DNA of 64,000 nt from Moniliella sp. 'wahieum' (GCA_003971905.1 RSEE01000009.1:496001-560000), one strand, 5' to 3'; positions 11,046-64,000 are shown, counted from the first letter of the stretch. Program-made: numbers and translations. Notes: a model not told the origin generated them from the letters alone.

Positions 11046-13281
11046 GCGGCGGACAAACACTGCCTCAACTGAGACTGGAAATCGACGTGGCCAGAGGAGG
11101 GCTCGCGCGACTGGACTGACGAATGGCTGGAGGACGAGATCGGAGGAGATGTCGGACGCTAACAACAGTAGGCTGCCTGTACTGGATCAATTGGCTGGAA
11201 AACGGGCAGGAGTCGGACAGGATAGGCGAGAGGGTAGACGAGGGGGTTGAGACGAGAGTGGGGACGAGAATGGGGACGAGAATTGACGAGAATGGAAGGT
11301 GGGGAAAAAGGTCCCCATCAACCAGGGATACAGGCAGGATCAAAAGGGAAACGGATACAAGAGGGGGTGTAGGAAGGAAGACACGTCAAAGGGGGGGGGT
11401 CGCCGCAGGCGCGACCGAGAAAGGAACAGGAGACGGGGACGGGGCGACAGACGTCGCCACGGCACTGATGGAAGCTCGGTGGCTTTATTTAGGCCGGCCG
11501 ACTTGGACTTGGGCGGGGTGCGACTATTGCCGCGCGGATGCGATACTTAATTTAGCCAACCATCATCACACTCGGTTGGCCTGCGGAGCACGCTCTACTG
11601 GGCATGTGTGGAGCAGGCGGGCCTTAGCTTGGGTCGGACCATCTCGAGTCCGCCGCAGCCCGTGACACTGAGAGCTCTTTCCAACATGGAAAAGGTGGGG
11701 GCTATCGTGGGAAGGAAATGGGATTGGCGAGATGTGTGGTTTTTCATGCGACAGCGGCTGTTGCGCTGTGCCAAGAATAGAGAAGGACCCAGAGAGAAAG
11801 AAACCGCGAATTTCCCTTATGCGGACCAACAAGTGATTAACCGACCTTTGGCCTCATCGACCTCATCCGTCCGCGAAATGATCTCACTCCTCCACGTCTA
11901 GAGTACTACCCGCTCTCTCTCTTGATGCTTTTACCAGCAATCTCACATTCCAACTCCTCATCAAAGTTAGCAATTGTATCGTATTTCACTGCTTTGGTTG
12001 TCCCGTACATCATTCAAAGAGAGTCCGAATGGTATGCTTGTGATGGGTGGGGGGGTGGGGGGGTATATAGTTTTTGTTTCATCCTCTCATCGTCAAACTG
12101 GCGGATTTTGTTGGTGAGAGAGGAGTGGCTCTTGAAGCTGCCAATCCGAGCGTCGTCATGACCAGAGCAAAATGTGGTTCAACCCCTCCATTCCTGATCT
12201 TCCGAGTGCTCCAAGTTCCATCCCTCGGTATAGTCCGTACGTCTATAGCATTTTTCCTCCCACATCCCGTCTCGGCCTCTCTTGCTCCCTCCACTCACAG
12301 CAGTCACAGCTCGTTGAGGATATGGCGTCCGGGATGGAGCGCCCGAGGTAATCGATAATCGCTAACAGGCGGTTCGTTCACCCTCCGTGCTCGTGATCGA
12401 TCAGCTCCCTAGTTCGTTCAGTCAGTACAGGGGCCAAGTGATTGCGGCTAGTTGGTCGCGGCGCAACAGAGTGACTGGGTCAGGTTAGAGTGGCCAAGTG
12501 ACTAGTGACCCGCAGTGACACGTGACATGTGCATGTGACCATGTGACCCCTCACTGACACGATGGAGCAATCGCGTTGAATTGGGTTGCTGAGGCTGAGC
12601 GCTGGGTTAGGTAAGCGGAGGCATGCAGGCATGCACTGCTGGGGGGCAAATCGAATCGGGGAGGACGCACGCCGCTTTCCTGCTCGGCTGTTCGGGCGTT
12701 TTCAGCCCCAGTGCCTCAGTGCCTCAGCTCAGCTCAGCGGCGCATCCTGCCCACAGCTGCCCCGTGCATCACCTGTGTCACCGCGTCACATGTCCATGTC
12801 ACCGCTGATCGGGGTCGATGCCGATGCACGAGGCCATAGTTACGCGTTACGCCTGACACGTGACGCGGTGGCGGTCACCCAGTACTCAGCGCATGCTCGG
12901 ATCTCAGAGGATCAGCGCTCAGCCGCTCAGCCTTGCCGAGCGCCATGGAGCTTGAGACGCCGGCGCACCTCGGCATGGGCAGTGAGCCACTCGCAATTCA
13001 ATGTTGAATTAGCAATCAAAACGAGTAGTGAGCAACGCAGCTGCTGCCGCAGTCGCGCTTCGTGTCACTGTCACCCGTCACGAACCGCCACTCCGCCTCC
13101 CTCCACCCCTCCCCTCCGTCTGCGCCGCGCCCACGATGGGCGTGCAGTGATTAGCGACTCTGCTCCCCAGTGCCCATCCACGCCCAGCCGAGCCCTCGCA
13201 GCGCAGCGCCCGCCCTCATCCCCCCCTCCCCCCCCCGCCCGCTTCTGCCCCACCCAGGCTCATGTCCTCCTCCCTCTCTTG

Positions 13282-16200: not shown

Positions 16201-17521
16201 GGCAACACGGCGTTCCCTATATTTCTGCGCATCTTTATATGGATTTGTTCTAGATTGGTCCCCCGGCGCAGCAGGGTCCATGAGTCGCTGATGTTTCTCC
16301 TCGACCACCCCACGCCGATGCTTTGTATTCTGTTCCCGGCGCCACAACTTGGTTCCTCATCTTGACTCTTCTAAGTCTCAAGTGCGTCCTTCCCCCCTCC
16401 CGTGTGCATGTTACTGACCAAGATAACTCACCAGCTTCACAGATTGGGTGTGCTTCCTCGTACTTGACTTGGGCAACCCAGTCATCATGACCATTTCCAA
16501 GGGTCAGCGTGTATTTGACGGGCTGTTTCAGGCGATTGCCGTCCGTGCCGCAGGTTCCAAGTTGTGTCGGTGTTGCGCCTGGCGCCGGCGGTCCAGGTGC
16601 TGTATACGGTCATGATGTACCTTGCTGCGTTTCCAATCGCCATGTCGGTGCGATCAACGAATGTGTATGAGGAGCGGTCGTTGGCGTATTTCATGACGAA
16701 TCGGACGACGATGATCCTGGGGACGACCGCTTCCGTGGTCGAGTCGTGCTGACGGCCGGAGGCGCGGATGGTCGTCGTATCTTCTTCACCATGCCCGGAA
16801 ACAGTTATCTTTTGACCTATGGTGCTTGCCTTCTCCCTTTGGTTGCTGTGCATCGTGGAGAAGCATCAGCTGGAGCGGGAAGACAACCAGTCGTGGTTCA
16901 CCGTCTTTTCTTGTTTATTTGAGCTCACCTCAGCCTATGGCACTGTTGGGCTCTCGAGGGCACCCCAGTGGACGACTTTTCGCTTTCGGGCCGGTTCAAC
17001 GTCTTGGGGAAATTGGTCGTGATTGCCGTCATGCTGCGTGGGCGGCACCGTGTCTCCCCGTGGCTATTGACCGTGCCATCATGCTTCCTGACGACCTTGA
17101 GCCGGCCGATGCTGAGGTGCTGACGCCTTCGCTTGGGCCCGAGTCGGACGAGTGGGAGGACGAACGTGAAAACTTGACCAACGCGGATGAGGACACGGGG
17201 GACCCAGGCGGGGTGCGGCATCATGATTACAGTATGCGACCCGAGTCGGTGCAGGGGTATGATGTCGGTACCCCTCCCCTACCTGATCGGCCCACCTCCA
17301 CCAGCCCCCTTTCGGTCCCCCCGGGTCATTCGGCAGATCCATCCCATACGGCGGGTCCGGACCAAGCTCATTCCAGCCTACCTAACCAGTGCGATCCCAC
17401 CCCCCTCCCTGCCCCCTGCGGAATCGGTGCGGGAGGAAGGTCCGTGTATGACACCCTTCTCCCTCCCTCTCCACATCTTTCCGGCGAGGAAAGCTTCCGC
17501 CCGCAGCGCATGCATCCTTAA
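13282..17521 (+). CDS. TRK1: Trk-family K+ transporter with a long low-complexity cytoplasmic loop; frameshifted, at least one intron
   Basis: LNFFRIH, YIDCLFQCVSAMTVTGL, IFVRRYFFRKRF, GGVEYRALDLL, SAYSNSGMSL, LILAGNTAFP, AVRAAGF, VMMYLAAFPIAMSVRSTNVYEERSL, FELTSAYGTVGLS, RGRHR..LPVAIDRAIMLP. Confidence 0.93.
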
Positions 17522-18076
17522 TTTCTCCTTATGTATACCTTTTTGTTCACCAATATCACAAAGTTTCGTTGCGCATCCTGGATCGCCATTCTCTGCTCGT
17601 CACTGCACTTTCTACTCTCCCCCTCATCCCGTTTCGAATTCCAACCCCAAATCGCCTCCTGGTCTGCGTTGCACGGGCCACTCTCCCCCTTCCCCCCCAT
17701 CCTCCAGCCCTTTGATAACGTTGGCACGCATCTGTAATGGCAGCCTCTCCAACGAACCATTTCATCACCGCATACAAATGGTTCAAAGTAGAAGGCGAGC
17801 CGAAAAAAAGGCGAATGTGTTCTCGGCAAAGAGAGAGGACTTCACTACCACAGATGATTGATGAGACCAGCTACCCCATTGACGCTTTTCAAGCTTCAGA
17901 GAGTTAAGGTGTTGCGAGTAATTCATCCGGTACCAGGTACCCCCCCCGTTCCGTCCGCCTTTTCCCGACACTGGCCTTCTCCTTACGCAAAAACGATGTT
18001 CAACGTGCTCAACTTGATCGTTCAGAAAACCTGGCAATGTCAACATGTCACATGTCAACACGCGAAGAAAACTATA

Positions 18077-18793
18077 TCCCTAGATCACGTCCATTTCATT
18101 GATAGAGCTTAAGGCTGGGACAGGGGGAACGCTACGTCTAGACCTAACCGTTCATCTTGCGGGGTTACTTGAAGCGCCACCAAGGTTAAGGAACCAGCGG
18201 GATCGCCAGGATATCAGGACCCTCCGGTGGTCGCCACATACGCAAAAAGGAATGGCCTGCCACTTTTACATCAGCCTGCCCCGTGCCACGTTCCACGCCC
18301 CCTGCAGCCAGCAAGCATCGGTTATATTATTTCTCTACTAGAGGACCACCCGGCCTACGGCCCGGTATGCGTACTCCTCATGCTTTTACGTGCGTCTGTG
18401 CTGAAGGGCTGGGGCTTCGCCCCAGCCTTCCTCCGTTTGGTTGCGAACACCCACGGCCATCTTTCCCCCCTGGTCCACCGTTCCATAGGTCTCTTTCCCC
18501 ACTCATCCCCGCTGTCCACCGGTCCCGCGTCAACAGAGCTCCAGCACGCGACAGGGAACCGTCCCAAAGCAGGGGGATGGTAGGGTTAGGTGGATTTATA
18601 ACCCATGTGTGGTGCTGAGGCGAGTGGCTGGGCTGCACGTGCTATTAGGTCAGAACTTGGCATCGAGCTCTCTGTTTTATTAAAGGGGATGTCGTGTTGG
18701 CGACGGTAGAACGGTGGCTACGGTGGCGAGGGGGAACGGTGGCTAAGGTGGCGACGCAGCACAGCTGGGGCGTAGGCCCGGTGGTCCTCCTTG
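18077..18793 (+). mobile_element. Non-autonomous Helitron-like element (copy 1), interrupted by a nested element
   Basis: Starts A|TCCCTAG; about 250 bp is shared with 22933-23195; GGAACGGTGG-type subterminal repeats; GC hairpin GGGGCGTAGGCCC followed by GGTGGTCCTC-CTTG|T; no TSD. Confidence 0.65.
18338..18689 (-). mobile_element. Complete 352-bp non-autonomous Helitron nested in antisense
   Basis: Minus strand reads A|TCCCCTTTAATAAAACAGAGAGCT ... hairpin CCGGGCCGTAGGCCGG-GTGGTCCT-CTAG|T. These are canonical TC/CTAG termini inserted between A and T with no TSD. An internal 9-bp perfect stem GGCTGGGGC-TTC-GCCCCAGCC lies near 18407-18427. Confidence 0.75.
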
Positions 18794-20135
18794 TAATGTA
18801 CTAACGCGTTCTGCGTTCCTTACGTACTACCTGTCAACATGTCAACGATCAGTGCGATCAGCGTACGTTCACGTTCAACGCGCGTTCAGCACGCATGAAA
18901 ACTACGTACTAATGCATAACGTACTACTCCTGCTACTCCCGTACTCGGTACCCCACAGGGCCTCGTGACGAACCGTGATTGTGACGACAGGTAGCCTGTG
19001 ACATTGTGACATGAGAAGCATTTGAAGAGCTACGATAACAAACATCAGGTGTTTCTCCTGTCACGTCAGGGCGACAGGCATCAGGCCCCTCAGGCCTTTG
19101 CGGCCTATCTCTCATTTGTCCATCTCAGAACATAGTCTCAGTTCCCAGGTTTAGAATTTAGGGGGGCCATGTCAGCGACAGGTGATATGCATGAGTTACA
19201 TTGTGACATGTGATATGTGATGTGAGCACGACAGGCCCTGAGGCTGTACATGCGCTCGGGCATCTGGCGCCAAGGCCGGCACAGGCCTTGGCACACATCC
19301 GATGTGTCAGACTCGGACAGACCCATCTAGGCCCTATGCGTGCCGCGGGCTCCGTGGCTTCACAAGCACAATCTCCCCCATACGTGTTCATGTGGTGCAG
19401 TAACTGGAACGGGTTGCATCATGTGCGTCATACATACAAGCGCGCTGTGGTGTTACATGTTGCGTGCATGTAACATATGCATGTAACATGATGTTAAGCC
19501 TTGCGCGTTATATAGGCCTTAGGCCTTAGTGGCACAACTAGGTACTAGTTCATAGCTACTGGTTGTAGTTACTAGTTACTAGTTGCTAATTACTAGTTAC
19601 CAGTTGTAGTTACTAATAGTTACCAGTTCCATACACCTCGGAGAACTGTGTTGCAGACTTTAACAAAAAAACTTAACACAGGGGCAGGAGCACGAACAAA
19701 AAAACGCTGCGTCTATGAGGCTCGCTCAGCGCGCTCAGCGCCACCTGCGCGCACGCTCCCAGCTCGAGGTCCCATCCCAAAATCAGGAGGTCAACACGGC
19801 TTACCGCCAAGCTAGGCCCATCTGCCCCCCCCCCCTCCCGGTCATTCGTTTCCAAACTGGATGTAGTGTGCAGCAACTACTGCATCATTAGCATTGCCAA
19901 AAAACGTGATGAGCAAAAAAGAACCTGAGAGGCACACTGCCAAATGCTAGGCTCGCTCATGACATCTGTCCAACTATAGAGGTGAAAATGAAGTGCACGT
20001 CACAACGGACAACATTGTCATGCATATGTGTACATGGGGGGACTCGGAAAAGGTGACGCGAAATCTCGAAGCCTCAACAAATGCAGTGGATCATTTGTAA
20101 AAGCACACAATCGTGCCCACGTACGAGACAGCACA

Positions 20136-21299
20136 TCACGATTGCTGATTGTTGCTGCTTGGTTGGTTAGTGGGACACAATTCAACATTATTTTGCTGTT
20201 GGAATGAAGGCCAGAACGACTGATGAGGATGAGGAGATAGAGGAGGCTGCGAAACTGGATGACCATCAGCCCAGGGGTGATGTCCGCCGCCCTGGCAGTT
20301 GCCGGGAACGCCGGTGCCGGTGTTAAAGGTGTGGTTGAGGCAGGAAGGATGTCTCTGTGTACGAGGCCGGGGTGAGCTGGTCAAGTGCGGGCCTGCTGTG
20401 AATGGGGGCGAGTCATGGCTGTGGGGCCAGCGATTGTTCAAAGATGATCCGATCTGCGATACGGGAAGATCGGTGTTAAATAATTTGGCCTCTGATTCCT
20501 CAGACCCTTGAGGTAATCCGAACGGCAGTTGGTATCCAGCATTATCTCCTGGAACAAACACCAGGCGGCCAGTAGAGTTGATATACGACGTAGATACTCG
20601 AGACAACTCCGTATACTCGTGACATAGCCCATTCGTCACATGCCCATCCTCAGTCGGTTGCCCAGTGGGCTCGTAGCCCGAATGCAGAGAGAGACAAGAT
20701 GATGGAAATATCCTCCCTGTTGGGCGCATATCTGGGGGGCTGAGTGATGTACCATCCTGGTGGGATGTAGGTGCTTGGTTCATTCGAAGGGAACGTTCCG
20801 ATGCCGTTGCGAAATATGCGTTGTTCGCCACCGGAACCGGCTCCTGGCAACGGAGCATGAAGCTCAAAACAAAGCTCCTCCTCTTGGGTCCGATGTCCCA
20901 TTCGACCGTTCAGCTCATCAGTTCGAACGTCAGTCATTGATATCGGGACCCCGATCAACCTGTTGGGGTTGGACCAGAAGATGGTGCCAGTGGATTGTCC
21001 TGGAGAGTGGTTTGGCGCTGCTCGTACACTCGCTCCATTGTAATCTGCTGCGGTTGGCGCTGAAGGCGCTGATGCGTGGCCTGCAGTGTCGCCCGCAAAT
21101 TGGTGTTCTCTTGTCGCAGTTCTCTCACTGTGTCTGTAGAGGGAGAGGGGCTGTTAGCGTAACGCTGCGCACCTGTGTGGAGATTACGCTTACTTTCGAG
21201 ATCAGCAATGTACTTCCTTCGGCGCTCCCGGAACGCACGCTGCACCTCCAAGGCGCGAGTAGGGGCAACATCACTTCGAGGTCGGCGTCCACGAGCCAT
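20136..21299 (-). CDS. bZIP-like transcription factor with an atypical basic region; frameshifted
   Basis: MARGRRPRSDVAPTRALEVQRAFRERRRKYIADLESK ... VRELRQENTNLRATLQ: basic region plus heptad leucines, followed by a Pro/Ser/Thr/Gln-rich tail. Confidence 0.7.
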
Positions 21300-22626
21300 T
21301 GGAGCTGGTCTTTTCGGTGGTGGCGGGGCTGGTCTTTTTCGATAGTATAGTGCAACGGGGTTTTCAGTGGTGGCGGAGCTGGGCTATTTCGGTGGTATGG
21401 TGTAACGGGGTTTCGGTGGTGGCGGAGTTGGTGGATGTGACGGTCTTGAGGAAGGTTGCGGGCGGAGTGGTGGCGACAGGAGTCGGAAGAATGAAAAACT
21501 GTGGTGGGGCTTGGCCAGGAGGGGGTCTGGCCTAGAGTTTTGCATGACTTTCGACGTACTTCGCAACATGCTTTTGACATTTGACATGTGACACACTACT
21601 GCGGCACGTTTGGTAACATGTAACAGCGCATTATACACACACGAGGTAGCTAAGCTGCCAATATCGAACAGGCCTGCATTTTCCGGAACCCCCGCCCGCA
21701 AATGTGGAAGCTAGTGGGCTGTCTAAGGCGGAATTGCCAATTTGTGCAGTTTTGCGACTTTCTGGACATCTTCGGTTGAAACACGGCGCGGGCCCGAGTC
21801 CCGACTTATCCTGCTGCAGGGTCTTTGTAGGTCGGGATAGGGTCCACCCACTCCTTCGGAAGGGTTTGAAGCTTAAAGCTTGAAGAGCTTGAAGGCGGTT
21901 GCGATATGCTAGCTCCAAGCCTCAGCGCTTCCAGCGCTCACGCTTAGTACTTAGTAACGTCCAATGTTACCGTTTAGCTAATGTAACCCTATCGCCGACA
22001 TCACATATCATCGATCACTGAGTCTCCGCGTCATCGATTCCCTAGTCACTAGTCCCGACTAACTCATCGATCACCAATTAAATTAATGACTTCTGGCGAC
22101 GCAGGCCGCGTGAAAAGGGTGAGATGCTGGTGCTGGGGACAAGGGGTTGCGCGGTTGCAGAAGAAAGAACATGTCTGGAGGAGGCTTGGGGAGGCACTGG
22201 AGGGGCCGGGATTGAAAGGAGGCAAAGAGGCTGCTCAGCGAGGGGTAGGCACTCTATCGTCCCCGCACACTGCATTCTGAACATGGAACATGGCCCAGGT
22301 CGACGATCGTGTGACTTGCAGCTGCGCCGGCTTATATTTTGGGCCTTTTTGGTCCCAGTTCTCTTCCCTCCAGTGGACAAGGTGGCAGGCAGATCATGCA
22401 TGTCACATGTCATGCATCATGGATGTTGTTACAGGTAGCTAATACTAGGTGACCGGTGACCGGTGACCGACGGTAAGCTAATAAAATCTCTTGTATCGCG
22501 AGTCGTGTCCGAATGAGCGCGTAAGCATGTGGGTTATAGAGGCGTGTGAGCTGTGGCTGTGACATGTGACATGTGAGTACGAGGACTACTACAACCTGCC
22601 GTAGCTCTCACCATAATAGTCACTGG

Positions 22627-22668
22627 AGATCTTAGATCTTAGATCTTAGATCTTAGATCTTAGATCTT
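22627..22668. repeat. Tandem heptamer array (AGATCTT)x6
   Basis: Six perfect copies read directly from the sequence. Confidence 0.95.
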
Positions 22669-22932
22669 ATTGCACTGAGTCAGTGTGCAGCCCCCCAGCG
22701 TTCAAACAGAGAGGTGCGTGGGTGCGTGAGCGCGCCCCGAGCGCCTCTGCATGGCATATGGGCAAGTAACAGTATAGTACTGAAACTAATACCGGAACCA
22801 TCGTGTGTGGCAGCCGAAGTATATTCCGACATCAGTACCTATTTTGAGAGCCTGAGGCTGAGGCGCAGAAGCCTGAGCCTGTTGGCGCTGTAGTAGAGGG
22901 GGGGCGTACAGAAATCGAACTACTGACATCCA

Positions 22933-23369
22933 TCTCTATCTCTATGTTGCGTCCATTTCATTGACAGAGCTGAAGGCTGGGACAGGGAAACGCTACGTCT
23001 AAACCGAACCGTTCATCTTGCGGGGGTTATTTGGAGGCGCCACTAAGGTCAAGGAACCAGGAGGCTCGCCAGGATATCAGGACCCTCCGGTGTGGTCGCC
23101 ACATACGCAAAAAGGAATGGCCTGCCACTTTTACATCAGCCTGTCCCGTGCCACGTTCCACGCCACCCACTGCCAGCAAGCATCGGTGATATTATTCCGT
23201 TTTTCCAGCGTGGAAGGGTTGGCCGGGGAACGGTGGCTAAGGTGGCGGCGGTGGAACGGTGGTTACGGTGGCGATGGTGGGCCGTGGAACGGTGACTAAG
23301 GTGGCGACCAAGTACCAAGCTGGGGCGAAGCCTAGGCTGACCGCGGGCCGTAGCCCGGTGGTCTCCTCG
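22933..23369 (+). mobile_element. Non-autonomous Helitron-like element (copy 2)
   Basis: Starts A|TCTCTATCTCTATG (start ambiguous by about 6 nt); homologous to 18077-18330; several GGAACGGTGGCTAAGGTGGCG-like repeats; hairpin GACCGCGGGCCGTAGCCCGGTGGTC then CTCG|T; no TSD. Confidence 0.65.
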
Positions 23370-24191
23370 TGTCATCAATAAACATCTTTCGTTCTGCATG
23401 ACGTGTCTGAGACTGGAGAAGACTGGAGAAGCGCTTCGCCCTCGTCCAACAGCCTCGTGTGGGGACCCGCGGTCCCGTACATAGGCCAAGGCGCCTTATC
23501 ACCCTTTTCCCCTTATTTGACCTCCGAAGCCTCCTCCACCTGTATACTCAGGCTTGTTTGAACCCCTGTCTCCTCTACTTGTGGCATAAGGCTTAGACCC
23601 ACAACCACCACCACCGAGATTGCATTGCTCTACACATTTCCAGAGGTTCATCACCCAACCCCCTTTGGGTTCCTCCGGTCTTACATCTCGCGCCCTCAAA
23701 ACCGACGTTCGGCTGGGATGCACCTCACACGTCCTGTCAGGAGACGGAGATGGGGGAAAGGGTGCAGATGGATTGCATACATTTATGGACGCAGAGGAGG
23801 TATATGACCTCCTCAGGAAGGGGGCACAGTCGAGAGGTGGACACAGGATCTCCCAACTGATAGGAATCACGCCATAGTGCCCATACGGGCCTAGTGGGCA
23901 AGGGCCCCCTAGCACGGTGTGATTCTGACACGTCCTCATTCCTCCAGCTATTTAGACGCCAACAATGGGTTGTCAGCACGACATCCGAACCTTATCGGTT
24001 TCTGTTCATTGGTTGAAGAGCCATAAGATCAACACTAAGCCTTAGTTGTTAGAGGGTACTGCTAGGGTTCTCCTGCGCGGCCCTCAATGGATCGGTGACG
24101 CTCGCCTAGCCGAGCGGAAGCGTTCCGCTCGCAGGCCGCGCACGCCCTGCTCGCTCCATCTCCCTTCTCTCTCTCCTTTCTCCTTCCCTTC

Positions 24192-24345
24192 AGACGTTGC
24201 TTGAAGACTTGTGGCTCACCACTTTGCCTTCACGCCTTGTCTGAAGGTACGCCTCTGCTTCCTTTCTTGCCCTGTTGCTCCTCACAATGAGACGTTGCTT
24301 GAAGACTTGTGGCTCACCACTTTGCCTTCACGCCTTGTCTGAAGG
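24192..24345. repeat. 56-bp perfect direct repeat (24192-24247 and 24290-24345)
   Basis: AGACGTTGCTTGAAGACTTGTGGCTCACCACTTTGCCTTCACGCCTTGTCTGAAGG occurs twice, 42 bp apart. Confidence 0.9.
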
Positions 24346-24781
24346 CTGCTTTGCAGCTGATCCATAGGATCGCGAGTGCTCCCAAGTCGCACTCTAGCAT
24401 TAGTTTGGTGGACGAGGAGAGCGACGAGCTCTTTTGTTAATATGTTGTTCATTTTTTCGAATGGCATCACAACTTTTTCCCTGTTCTGTTAGTGGCGTAT
24501 TGTATTCCCTCTTCATTATTGGGGGGATACGACATGTTTTGGGTGCGACCAAAATGCTTGGCATTCCCCTGACAATCCACCCTTTTCTAGAAGAGAACAT
24601 TCCAGCAGAGACGCGCCCTATCTCTATGAATACTCTCTTTGCAGTATACAGAGGCTATAATAATAGTAAAGACGTCCCCCTGAAAAGGCAGCATGGTCTC
24701 TACCGTAGAAGGGGTTTAAGGTTTAATTCGTGGGTCTGAGGAGCACACAGGTGGTGCCGGTGACGAACTACGCCCGAGTGG

Positions 24782-49754: not shown

Positions 49755-49830
49755 CCCGTGGCCTAATGAAGGTTGCATTCCCGTGGTCTAATGAAGGTTG
49801 CATTCCCGTGGCCTAATGAAGGTTGCATTC
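49755..49830. repeat. 25-bp tandem repeat x3 (CCCGTGGCCTAATGAAGGTTGCATT)
   Basis: Three head-to-tail copies with one C>T mismatch and no spacers. Confidence 0.92.
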
Positions 49831-50010
49831 ATATTTTACTACAGAGCTTATAGCCTGGACAACGAAACGCTGGTGCGCCCATCCGGATCGCACGTCGAGC
49901 TCATCCAGAATATGTGTTGCCTGCTCGTGCCAGCCCGTTTGGGAAATTAGTGGAGGGTCTGGACCCTCCGCTACTGTGGGCTCTCCCGTCACGCGTTAGC
50001 AGAAGTATAT

Positions 50011-50410
50011 AGCGCGTGTGGACACCCTAGAATGAGCGCGTGGTAGATGACAAGCGCAACATGCCTCCAATGCAAACCGTCAGTTAATTCCTTCCGCAAT
50101 GCCCAAACGTCATACTGACCGTCTTCGCAGTATTTTCGTTTGTCCCATGACCACTGAAACAGAGGGGAAAGAGTGTGGCTCTTGAGTACGTTCTTTTACG
50201 TGGTACTTGGGTTCTTTCGTCGCATTCCGCTTGCTTCAACAGTGGAATCAACTTCTTTTCCTGGCGTTCCACAGGCGTTGCGGTTCCCTCATGTACCACC
50301 TTCCTGTATGCAACTACCCCTCCCTCTGGAAACCGAGCCTCTCAATGTGTGTGGTCCACCTCCATTCCTGTGATTATCCGAATGCTCCGGGTTCCATCAC
50401 TCGGTAGTCT
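50011..50410 (-). mobile_element. Degenerate fragment of a CRE-like (RLE-type) non-LTR retrotransposon C-terminus
   Basis: VHEGTATPVERQEKKLIPLLKQAECD.. aligns by eye to VHESTASPLERREKELLRLLEQAECDK at about 63480-63560; shared DNA blocks AGCGCGTGTGGACAC and GTGTGGTCYACCTCCATTCC. Confidence 0.8.
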
Positions 50411-51131
50411 GTATACACGTAGCGTTCCTCCTGCACTGTGTCTCGTTTTATTCCTCCACGTTGGATCGTTGAGAATGTGGTGTGTGTCCATGATGTTGCG
50501 CCCCCGAGAGCTAACGAGTCACATGGACAGTATATATGGAACGGTGGACTATGGAGCAACTATGGAACGGTGGACCAAGGACTGCGGACTATTCCAGAAC
50601 ATTAGACTGGCGGTAAGGCCTAAGGCCCAAGGCCTCTAAGGCCATTGGATATACATATGGGGCCGCAGGTCACGGCAGAAGGTCAAGACGATATGTTGTC
50701 TGCGGTTGTCACGCATTGGACGCAGTTTTTTTTCTGTACCAACGAACAGAAGCGTATATGTTTTGGGAGCCACATCCCATGGGGCTTGAATGATTCAGCG
50801 GTCAGGTGAGCAGTCAGGCTGATGGGCAAGTATTGACCTGCTGGGTTTCCAGATCTCCAACCTGCCACGGTCGAATGATGAGGAGGCCGTGGACGATATG
50901 CAGAAAAGGGGGGGGGTTACCTAATACTGACCCCTCTCCGGAGAATGTAGACGTGGCAATCAGCGACGGTGAAATATTGCAAGCCGGGTGGGCAGCCCAG
51001 GACGCGCACCTCCGTTCCCACCCGCCGAGGCCGGCTCCACGCCCCCCGATCGACGCTCCATCCTCTCCACCACCATCTAAGCCAGATGCTCCCCCGCCTT
51101 CAACTACGCGGCGCCCGTCGCACCGCCGCAA

Positions 51132-61600: not shown

Positions 61601-63116
61601 GTTTGTCCTGCAGTTGACTCTGTACGACAAGGGGAAAGCTTGACGGGAATGGCGAATAGGGAAAACTGGAAAGGGAGTCCCAGAAGGATCGACCGATATA
61701 GTATCTTCCAGTTCTGTGGACAGCATGGGGTTTGGAGTTGCCTGGGCGGGCAGGGAATCGAGCGTGAGGCCGGCCACGCTGCTATTGTGAGAATAGTAGG
61801 GAGGAGCAAAATCGATTGATGCCCCCCGAAGCACCGACCATGCCCCGGATTCCCACATCCTCTGTGCTTGTCACATTCGGTAGCGCTCGGGGAAGGGCAT
61901 AAGTCGACAAGCAAAGGCGATCCATATGCGAAGACACGGCGGGGTAGTGACGGCAGTGGTGGTGGTAAATATGAAGGGAGGAGACTTGTTGTAGGGCACA
62001 ATTTTGGAAAAGTGGTGGCGAGCGCGAAGGTGCTTTATAAGACGTGTGGGGAGGCAATGGCGCAGTCTTTGCATTAGTGTGAAAAGGGCCCTGCCACACT
62101 ATATTAGCCTCACAGTGGCCGGCGGGCCGGACTAAGCACTGAGCGATGTATATCATGTGAGAACATCGTCATATTGTGGCAAACGGTGCAACCGGGGAGG
62201 CCTTTCGCCTGTCTTATTAGTGGCGCGATGTGTATATACATGGTGATGCGAGTGGCGCGTGTAGACCACAGAACAACGTGTGCCAAGACTGCATCGCGGC
62301 TCAGCCGCTGAGGTTCTTTGATCCACGGACTTAAGCAAATTGGGGCAGAGAGTGAGGGTGAGGTGAGGGTGCTGTGATGAAGTTTGAATGGGGGAATGTC
62401 CGACTCGTATTAAGACCTCCAAACCATAATGCAAAAAGCACAGCAGAGGTCATGGCGACCCAAAAGAGTGGGTCAGACGTCCATATATAGACTCCTGCGG
62501 GTGTGGTAGGAAGTCGCGCGGCCGTCCGACGACAGTGTATATATTTGAAGTCGGACCGAGATCGGATGCGAAAGTGTCAGGATGTCATATGGGTTACACA
62601 TTGGTTACAACGGTTACAGGTTGCGTGTTGCGAGTAGTAGGCGCGTGAGCTTTTTGTCTACATTATACAAATCTCACGTATAATAGGGGGAGAGGAGAGA
62701 GGATGACAGCCTGGGCAACAGTTGCATGAGAAGACTTTACCCGACGGGGGATTAGCGAATGGGGTGCAACTGCATGGACGCGCCACCACCAGGGAAATCA
62801 TCCTTTTTGTCTCTCAGTCTTCGGAGAGCGATCGGTTTCCGGTCCGCACCGGAGCGTGCAGAGCGCTGCCGAATTTGAATGTACGCTGGACGTTGCGAGC
62901 TTGAGCGCGTGGACGCGCGCTGCGTGACGCCTAACCCGCCTATGTAGCCGGATGCCGAAACGGCAATCAAGAACAAGCCCTATATTAATTGCTGGTGCCG
63001 GTGAGGCCGGTGAGCGCTGAGCGAAAGTAGAGACAAGCGGAGTGGGACTCGGAGGAGGGAGTGGACGGAGGGTGAGATCTCTGAGAAAGAGGGAAGGCGA
63101 AGCTACGAGTGGCCTA

Positions 63117-63270
63117 TCTCTATGTTGTGTGCATTCCATTGACAAGAGCTTAAGGCTGGGACAGGGGGAACGCTACGTCTAAACCGAACCGTTCATCTTG
63201 CGGGGGTTGTTTGGAAGCGCCACTAAGGTCAAGGAACCAGGGGATTGCCAGGATTTCAGGACCCTCCGCT
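63117..63270 (+). mobile_element. Third copy of the shared Helitron-like 5' segment
   Basis: A|TCTCTATGTTG..GAGCTTAAGGCTGGGACAGGGGGAACGCTACGTCTAAACCGAACCGTTCATCTTGCGGGGGTT..CAGGACCCTCCG is clearly homologous to 18090-18226 and 22939-23089. Confidence 0.85.
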
Positions 63271-63291
63271 CTCGCCATCCGGTCCCGTACC

Positions 63292-64000
63292 TTAGGAAGC
63301 GCGTGTGGACACGAGGAACGTGGTTGACATACGAGCGAGGAACCATTTCCACTGAGACTTAGTAGCCAACTCCTTCCAATGCGCAAACAACTTGCCCGCC
63401 GTCTTGGTGCCGTAGTATCCTCGCGTCGTCAAAACCAGGGGGAAAAACGGTTCTTGAGTGCGTCCCTGGTACTTGGCGTTCTTGTCGCATTCTGCTTGTT
63501 CAAGCAGCCGAAGCAGTTCCTTCTCCCGGCGTTCCAAAGGCGACGCAGTGCTCTCATGCACCACCCGCCGGTACGCGCTCTGCGCCTCCTGCGATCCCGT
63601 GTCGCGCAGCGTGTGGTCTACCTCCATTCCGGTTCCTCCCAGTGCTCCGGGCCCCATCACGCGGTAATCGTGCGCTGTGCCTTCCGTCCGCGCCTCGTCC
63701 CATCCTCTTCCTCCACCATAGGTTCGTTGTGGACGTGGGTGTCGGGGATGGAGCGTAGGAGCTGGAGAATGGGCTCCCGCACTGCCTCATGCAACGCACC
63801 AAACTTGGCCTGGGTGCGGGTGCAGGACATGATGTGTTCCAGCGAGGACATGACGCCGCACTTACATGCTGCGCGTGGTGCGGCACAGCGTGCGGAGCTG
63901 GAGACCAACCTGACCTGCTGGTCAGAGAGCTTGAGGTACGGGACGGATGGAATGGCGGAGAGCCATTGTGGCTCAGCGGGTTGCTGTGCTCAACCACATG
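63292..64000 (-). mobile_element. C-terminal part of a CRE-clade-like non-LTR retrotransposon ORF (CCHC knuckle plus restriction-like endonuclease); runs off the window
   Basis: QWLSAIPSVPYLKLSDQQVRL, CKCG..LEHIMSC, HEAV, EP, spaced acidic residues, E.DKNAKY, FFPLVLTTRG: the motif order of the RLE domain of CRE/Cnl1/MoTeR-type elements. Confidence 0.8.

Follow-up and report, generated by a model that had tools for sequence, protein, structure and literature searches.

Genomic setting of the repeated segment

The window analyzed here, a 64,000-nucleotide stretch of DNA from Moniliella sp. 'wahieum', represents a gene-rich fungal-type arm with introns (3-59000). Its genes encode a TCP-1 chaperonin, RPS3Ae, an amino-acid permease, tubulin, a thioredoxin-domain protein and a zinc ADH, together with an aspartate-semialdehyde dehydrogenase, a protein kinase and a Ras-family GTPase. 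At the right end of the window, on the minus strand of 63292-64000, lies a protein region that carries a CCHC knuckle and restriction-like-endonuclease motifs. This region and the DNA adjoining it at its 3' side are referred to below as the End copy. Nucleotide comparison within the window demonstrated that the adjoining DNA is repeated twice: positions 63114-63268 align with 22936-23089 (91.7% identity over 156 columns, E 5e-55) and positions 63129-63277 align with 18089-18236 (87.4% identity, E 1e-43). The shared segment of about 155 bp constitutes the left (plus-strand) end of two short elements, E1 and E2. No A-run or poly(A) tract was detected between the reading frame and the end of the segment at 63114. 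The original prediction had described a segment of about 150 bp repeated at the starts of two short elements, a minus-strand CCHC and restriction-like-endonuclease ORF adjoining it, and the absence of poly(A) between the two, and each of these three observations was confirmed.

Identity of the minus-strand reading frame

A word-index search identified one close and intact relative of the reading frame, P0001, a protein of 279 amino acids (78% identity over 95% of the query). Using P0001 as the query, phmmer returned 136 matches at E<=1e-3 (36 at E<=1e-10), and most of these matches fall at the very C-terminus of the matched proteins. Twelve of the 136 were chosen for their length (507-1522 aa) and checked for Pfam RVT_1. 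All twelve long relatives possess RVT_1 upstream of the matched domain, ten of them above the Pfam cut-off and two more weakly (E 7e-4 and 1.4e-4). A Pfam search using the ORF pieces and P0001 itself returned no family. Residues 66-150 of P0001 follow the pattern C-x1-C-x7-H-x3-C-x9-LHE-x20-E-x16-RTD-x15-E, which fits the published REL formula of a CCHC knuckle followed by RHD/N ... E ... R/KPD ... D/E (PMC12857005). The departures from this formula are leucine for the arginine of RHD/N, threonine for proline, and a single spacer that is one residue longer. The window copy displays the same REL-motif residues as P0001 up to the position of its frameshift. The leucine lies at P0001 residue 90 (about 63795 in the window), a position occupied by the arginine of RHD/N in at least 90% of 40 aligned relatives, and it was found independently in the window copy and in P0001.

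An AlphaFold2 model of P0001, built from a 40-sequence alignment, reached a pLDDT of 87.1 and a pTM of 0.83. In a PDB comparison, R2 proteins took the first seven places (E 2.2e-6 to 1.9e-3, TMq 0.37-0.53), followed by weak matches to PD-(D/E)XK nucleases. The closest PDB structures to the reverse transcriptase (RT) of another relative, P0004, are likewise R2 proteins (E 2.2e-7), ahead of LINE-1 ORF2p. The REL motif, the R2-like fold and the RVT_1 domain of the relatives together point to an R2-superfamily LINE. Judged by sequence and with the RT taken from the relatives, the End copy therefore appears to be a dead restriction-like-endonuclease non-LTR element of this superfamily, with the presumed order RT, CCHC knuckle, endonuclease. 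It likely belongs with the CRE/Cnl1/MoTeR/FoTeR group, the named members of which were compared by description only. The site-specific or telomere-associated insertion that is a trait of the CRE clade was not observed in the window. The surroundings are gene-rich, and the four copies described below have four unrelated 3' flanks, save for a GCCAC that follows the tails of the End copy and of a diverged copy, Frag2.

Coding content of the shared segment

In the End copy, the literal open frame is closed by a stop codon at 63292-63294, and 15-24 bp separate this codon from the edge of the similarity to the short elements. A tblastn comparison of P0001 against the window traced the End copy across at least four frame changes, the frame being -3 as far as about 63660, -2 from there to 63313, -1 up to 63272, and -3 once more thereafter. 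Residues 252-265 of P0001 align with 63313-63272; residues 268-276 correspond to 63266-63240, which lies within the shared segment. The C-terminal peptide of P0001 (residues 264-278, WRAPEGPDLLAAPLV) maps into the shared segment in all three copies, with identities of 12/15 in E1, 9/12 in E2 and 6/9 in the End copy. In E1, positions 18236-18192 encode WRPPEGPDILAIPLV (E 0.001), and the corresponding match in E2 spans 23090-23055. The P0001-like frame enters the shared segment by 48 nt, and a stop codon follows PLVP at the same aligned position in all three copies (63229-63231 in the End copy, 23049-23051 in E2 and 18186-18188 in E1). The End copy TGA at this position is out of frame as a result of a 1-bp deletion just upstream.

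The location of the ancestral stop at one aligned place in three copies indicates that the segment consists of a coding end, a stop codon and a 3' UTR. The remains of the C-terminal coding region, made up of linker, CCHC knuckle and restriction-like endonuclease and equivalent to P0001 residues 20-279, would thus occupy the minus strand of 63232..64000 in a decayed state and run off the window at its end. The putative ancestral stop codon TGA of the retrotransposon ORF lies at 63229..63231. A predicted 3' UTR of about 115 nt and the 3' terminus, lacking poly(A), cover 63114..63228 and end in ...CATAGAGATAG, possibly continuing to GGCCAC at 63108. Based on the repeat alignments and the P0001 comparison, the shared 155-bp segment (63114..63270, minus strand) can be read as the 3' end of the retrotransposon itself, comprising its last 16 codons, its stop and its 3' UTR of about 115 nt. 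The stop at 63292-63294 would then be secondary, a product of decay. The original prediction had placed the segment about 25 bp from the stop codon of the ORF; the literal gap of 15-24 bp agrees with this statement, but the stop in question appears to be the secondary one and the ancestral frame runs 48 nt into the segment.

The majority of the distant relatives finish about 20 residues before the C-terminus of P0001, which suggests that the C-terminal extension is specific to the family formed by P0001 and the window copies. The extension is disordered in the P0001 model, with pLDDT falling below 50 from residue 262. The terminus of the End copy is followed by GCCAC (63108-63113); the true 3' end may lie about 5 bp past 63114, or the bases may reflect a target preference.

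Short elements E1 and E2

E2 is a 436-bp non-autonomous element on the minus strand (22934..23369), composed of a head (23369->23243) that holds three repeats of 26-33 bp, a middle (23242->23093) and a tail (23092->22934). E1, a 722-bp non-autonomous element on the same strand (18072..18793), has a head, middle and tail as in E2 in addition to an extra block of 366 bp, termed E3. Over the first 264 columns the two elements are 89% identical, and the similarity resumes at their right ends. When their middle of about 150 bp was compared with Frag2, E3 and the End copy, its similarity did not exceed that of shuffled sequences, and it produced no credible protein match. A single deletion junction, located at the W264 codon, and a single middle are common to E1 and E2, which lie within unrelated flanks, and this arrangement indicates that they were copied after the deletion arose.

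The extra block E3 (18338..18697, plus strand) begins with an inverted, longer head, contains a strong palindrome and has no tail. Positions 18341-18363 of E3 are 91% complementary to positions 18767-18789 of E1, in agreement with an inverted head. The near-perfect palindrome is centered around 18404-18436, and its fold (z -3.8) was not equaled by any of 200 shuffles. Target-primed reverse transcription (TPRT) alone does not produce a block with a head and no tail.

An Rfam search of 17900-23500 and 62900-64000 at E<=10 returned weak, chance-level matches only, with no ribozyme, tRNA, 5S or 7SL RNA, and ARAGORN detected no genes in the element heads. These searches gave no support to an HDV-like ribozyme or a tRNA-derived SINE head as the identity of the head. 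RNA folds of the three tails were no better than those of shuffles (z 0.71, 0.66 and 1.29), and the same was true for the heads of E1 (z -0.20) and E2 (z 0.90). A consensus fold of the three tails contained 1 compensatory pair among 42, a number too low for any conclusion. The flanks of E2 (TGACATCCAT/TGTCATCAAT) are alike at 8/10 positions, a level equaled by 6.7% of 3000 random site pairs when a slack of +/-3 bp is allowed (p about 0.07), and the flanks of E1 show no recognizable target-site duplication (TSD). A 13-mer, TGTCAACATGTCA, is present at 18038-18050 and at 18832-18844, 21 bp and 38 bp outside the ends of E1. Its flanks are rich in GTCAAC-like repeats, and it could represent a distant target duplication with extra bases or a local repeat.

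Frag2 and the head motif

A weak match at 50201-50409 (74%) led to Frag2, an 881-bp diverged and internally deleted copy on the minus strand (49756..50636) that comprises a head motif, an endonuclease remnant, a homologous 3' UTR and terminal repeats. Its endonuclease remnant corresponds by tblastn to P0001 residues 103-229 and contains stops. The alignment of Frag2 with the End copy begins in the endonuclease region, covers the entire 3' UTR and reaches the terminus, which demonstrates that the tail is conserved between two diverged subfamilies with ORFs about 74% identical. The 25-bp terminal unit of Frag2 is present three times (49755-49830) with 96% matches, and each unit closes with TAGGCCACGG. 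A candidate TSD (ATGGCC-TTA/TAGGCCCTTA) is confounded by the GGCCTTR repeats of Frag2 itself, about four units of 7-8 bp that lie farther upstream (50643-50614). Frag2 ends about 450 bp upstream of kinase reading frames.

Upstream of the Frag2 ORF remnant and on its strand there are two CCACCGTTCC repeats (50573-50538), in the form of two copies of GTCCACCGTTCCATA at a spacing of 26 bp. Six occurrences of the 10-mer CCACCGTTCC were counted in the window, compared with 0.16 expected; none of 100 shuffles contained more than one, and all six fall within the heads of E1, E2, E3 and Frag2. In addition, a 21-nt stretch of the Frag2 head matches E3 at 20/21 positions with a score of 37, compared with a maximum of 31 in 200 shuffles. 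That the CCACCGTTCC head precedes the ORF remnant and has its orientation argues that the head belongs with the retrotransposon family. The head thus appears to travel with this family, and the supposed Helitron 3' region would correspond to a head read on the opposite strand, located 5' of the coding sequence.

Contigs of other sequencing runs

The contigs of four other sequencing runs were compared with positions 17000-24500 at 80% likeness, and most of this region was without cover. Among the contigs listed, those from X1 and X2 that extend past the inner edge of the segment (18236, 23090) continue with TCCGGTCCCGTACCCTAGGAAG. This sequence is identical to 63278-63299 but for one letter, i.e. 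it represents the continuation of the ORF, and one such X2 contig measures 635 nt. Two X1 contigs among those listed continue in an E2-like manner. As rough metagenome figures, the X1 word depth is 35.8 for the contig of the core tail and 6.69 for the head contig (18720-18779), and the one listed contig in the unique flank to the right of E2 has a similarly rough depth of 2.28. A tail that is several-fold commoner than the head fits 5'-truncating LINEs, and a head that served as the 3' end of a Helitron should have given the reverse. None of the contigs listed bridges an empty site. A metagenome scan with a 36-letter pattern from the segment returned 0 stretches, and a scan with P0001 gave no confirmed locus. 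An exact 56-bp direct repeat is present at 24192-24247 and 24290-24345, 98 bp apart, and one X1 contig skips 98 bp at this place (24191->24290), which suggests a tandem duplication that is variable among related genomes.

Origin of the short elements

We consider it probable that the End copy is the 3' end of an R2-superfamily LINE, that E1 and E2 are internally deleted parasites of the same family, and that the likeness of their ends to Helitron termini is coincidental. This reading builds on the homologies, on the coding content of the segment and on a strand that links the head motif to an ORF remnant and a tail, all of which were observed here. E1 and E2 would have retained the 5' head and the 3' tail of the element and lost its RT-endonuclease gene, with another stretch of about 150 bp in its place. 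The RT of the family would recognize the 3' UTR RNA, and the same protein would nick the target and copy the RNA by TPRT, so that any RNA ending in the tail could be copied in trans. Mobilization in trans, the use of TPRT and the role of the head as the 5' UTR of a full-length element are what we infer from these observations. For the last of these, it is Frag2, as a single copy, that suggests the head to be the 5' UTR of the element itself, given that the window ends at 64000. The number of terminal repeats is also variable, with 1.7 copies of the ATAGAG repeat in the End copy against 2.3 in E2 and the 25-bp unit in triplicate in Frag2, which fits TPRT and not the fixed end of a rolling-circle element.

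Comparable systems have been described. In Magnaporthe oryzae, MoTeR1 is an RT and REL element, and MoTeR2 is its shorter partner; the two have 860 bp of 5' and 77 bp of 3' terminal sequence in common around an unrelated middle, i.e. both termini are shared and the coding region is replaced, and MoTeR2 presumably uses the RT of the autonomous element (PMC7367193). The MoTeRs sit in telomere repeats and have a telomere-like start, unlike the copies described here, which lie in a gene-rich arm with four different flanks, and the shared tail is longer in the window (about 160 bp including coding sequence, compared with 77 bp). The R2 SIDEs of Drosophila are likewise non-autonomous combinations of the 5' end and the 3' end of a restriction-like-endonuclease LINE, and they propagate because the RT binds the 3' UTR RNA (PMC3414825). 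They differ in being specific to rDNA and in having an HDV-like ribozyme as the head, whereas the copies in the window show no ribozyme match in Rfam and no rDNA context. As in both of these systems, the short elements in the window share the exact 3' end of the autonomous element, and the occurrence of the same E1/E2 junction at different loci places their copying after the deletion. With respect to the 5' end, the head motif was found upstream of the ORF remnant in Frag2, which is one deleted copy. As described, Cnl1 of the basidiomycete fungus Cryptococcus neoformans is also a member of the R2 superfamily; it has one ORF, inserts into ordinary genes with TSDs of 0-13 bp and undergoes 5' truncation (PMC12810828). 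Its full-length copies are subtelomeric, unlike the copies in the window, and the sections of that report available to us describe no clearly non-autonomous CNL1 copies found mobilizing in Cryptococcus.

The window documents a fungal restriction-like-endonuclease LINE that is accompanied, in gene-rich DNA, by short non-autonomous partners. The portions of the SIDE papers available to us report partners of this kind as rare, and for the Cnl1/MoTeR-like group the accessible parts of the literature describe them only at the telomeres of Magnaporthe. A broader proposal, which we regard as unlikely, is that the copies belong to a dispersed, non-telomeric Cnl1/MoTeR-like lineage with deleted parasites, in which inverted terminal duplicates such as that of E3 arise through a regular snap-back or template-switch step and not as accidents. 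The head, with its variable repeats of 25-33 bp and its terminal hairpin, could in this proposal act as a cis element for the formation of the 5' end.

E1 and E2 could also be SINE-like, with an unrelated head joined to a retrotransposon tail and with Frag2 as a similar chimera that retains a larger 3' portion. In run X1 the tail outnumbers the head about fivefold, the middle of E1 and E2 has no similarity to any retrotransposon sequence visible in the window, and the 5' end of the full-length element lies beyond the window edge at 64000, all of which would be compatible with a foreign head. We nevertheless judge this origin to be decidedly unlikely: neither a tRNA, 5S or 7SL RNA nor any other RNA family was recognized in the heads, and the head motif occurs directly upstream of the ORF remnant in a subfamily so diverged that its ORF is about 74% identical, an arrangement most simply explained if the head is the family's own.

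Comparison with Helitron termini

Helitrons are characterized by a 5'-TC, a 3'-CTRR, a subterminal hairpin, insertion between A and T, no TSD, and a RepHel protein (PMC4289320). The original prediction had the shared segment begin at an A|TC start. The TC is indeed preceded by A in all three copies, but this position is not a unique boundary: the bases CTA upstream of the TC are common to all three copies and CT.TA to E1 and E2, so that the homology reaches 2-5 bases beyond it and the element boundary cannot be placed at A|TC. At the opposite end the canonical 3'-CTRR is missing from both elements, E1 ending in CTTG and E2 in CTCG, and it is only the internal block E3 that ends in CTAG. A CTTG end has been reported for HELPO2 of Pleurotus (PMC4289320), and if the rule is relaxed to the HELPO2 type, E1 alone would pass. 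The HelSearch geometry was defined as a hairpin of at least 6 pairs with a loop of 2-4 and a spacer of 5-8 nt before the 3' end. E2 and E3 pass this test (loop 3-4, spacer 5, CTCG/CTAG, then T) and E1 fails. The 64-kb window as a whole contains 118 CTRR ends of this type, 32 of which are followed by T, and 126 CTNG ends. With 118 such ends in 64 kb, the hairpin-CTRR rule does not discriminate, and the ends found are at chance level. All element junctions can be read as A|T.

A plus-strand Helitron could have recruited a retrotransposon 3' end as its 5' end, with a hairpin-CTNG sequence as its 3' end and, in some copies, an antisense RT/endonuclease cargo. The A before TC in every copy, the hairpins of E2 and E3, the CTTG end that E1 has in common with HELPO2, the reduction of E3 to a hairpin end as in truncated Helitrons and the absence of a TSD around E1 would all agree with such an element. 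The plus-strand ends (T[C]...hairpin...CT[A/T]G beside A and T) accordingly resemble those of HELPO1 and HELPO2 of Pleurotus ostreatus (PMC4289320). CNL1 is reported to insert with TSDs of 0-13 bp (PMC12810828), and a missing TSD is thus no argument for a Helitron. Unlike in HELPO1 and HELPO2, there is no RepHel in the window (at E<=1e-5, no Rep or helicase family was recognized in any of its 126 ORFs of at least 130 aa), E2 ends in CTCG, and the supposed 5' end coincides base for base with a retrotransposon terminus, including 16 codons and a stop in addition to the UTR. Homology upstream of the TC, hairpin ends at chance frequency of which that of E1 itself fails, terminal repeats that vary in number as they do at TPRT 3' ends, and a tail commoner than the head in run X1 also speak against a Helitron, and we regard this explanation as very improbable. 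The reverse-strand likeness to Helitron termini is best read as coincidental.

Two of the three readings offered in the original prediction, a Helitron that carries an endonuclease/RT cargo and a Helitron that took a LINE 3' UTR as its 5' end, are therefore not supported in view of the chance-level ends, the lack of RepHel in the window and the excess of tail over head in run X1. The third reading proposed a CRE family that yields internally deleted, MoTeR2-like copies with ends mimicking Helitron termini; its retrotransposon part is supported by the coding end in the segment and by the head of Frag2, but its Helitron component finds no support. The unusual chimeric mobile system that was anticipated is not warranted, as the locus represents an ordinary decayed retrotransposon 3' end with non-autonomous relatives. 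A candidate Helitron-LINE chimera is thereby removed. That a frameshifted ORF read together with the reverse strand can imitate Helitron ends should be useful to annotators, and the hairpin and CTRR rules fire about once per 500 bp in this window.

The original prediction had also allowed for a unique chance insertion; that the junction at 63117 arose when an unrelated short element inserted beside a retrotransposon remnant has the literal 15-24-bp gap between the secondary stop and the segment as its sole point, and it can be dismissed because the P0001 coding sequence continues into the segment in all three copies and the same ORF-tail continuity recurs in Frag2 and in the contigs of X1 and X2. 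Elsewhere in the window, positions 12130-12230 show a weak likeness to the endonuclease region (46 nt, 78%, E 1e-4) and may represent another, very small relic of the family, the third; the peptide EPHFALVMTTLG encoded there resembles the FPLVMTTRG motif.
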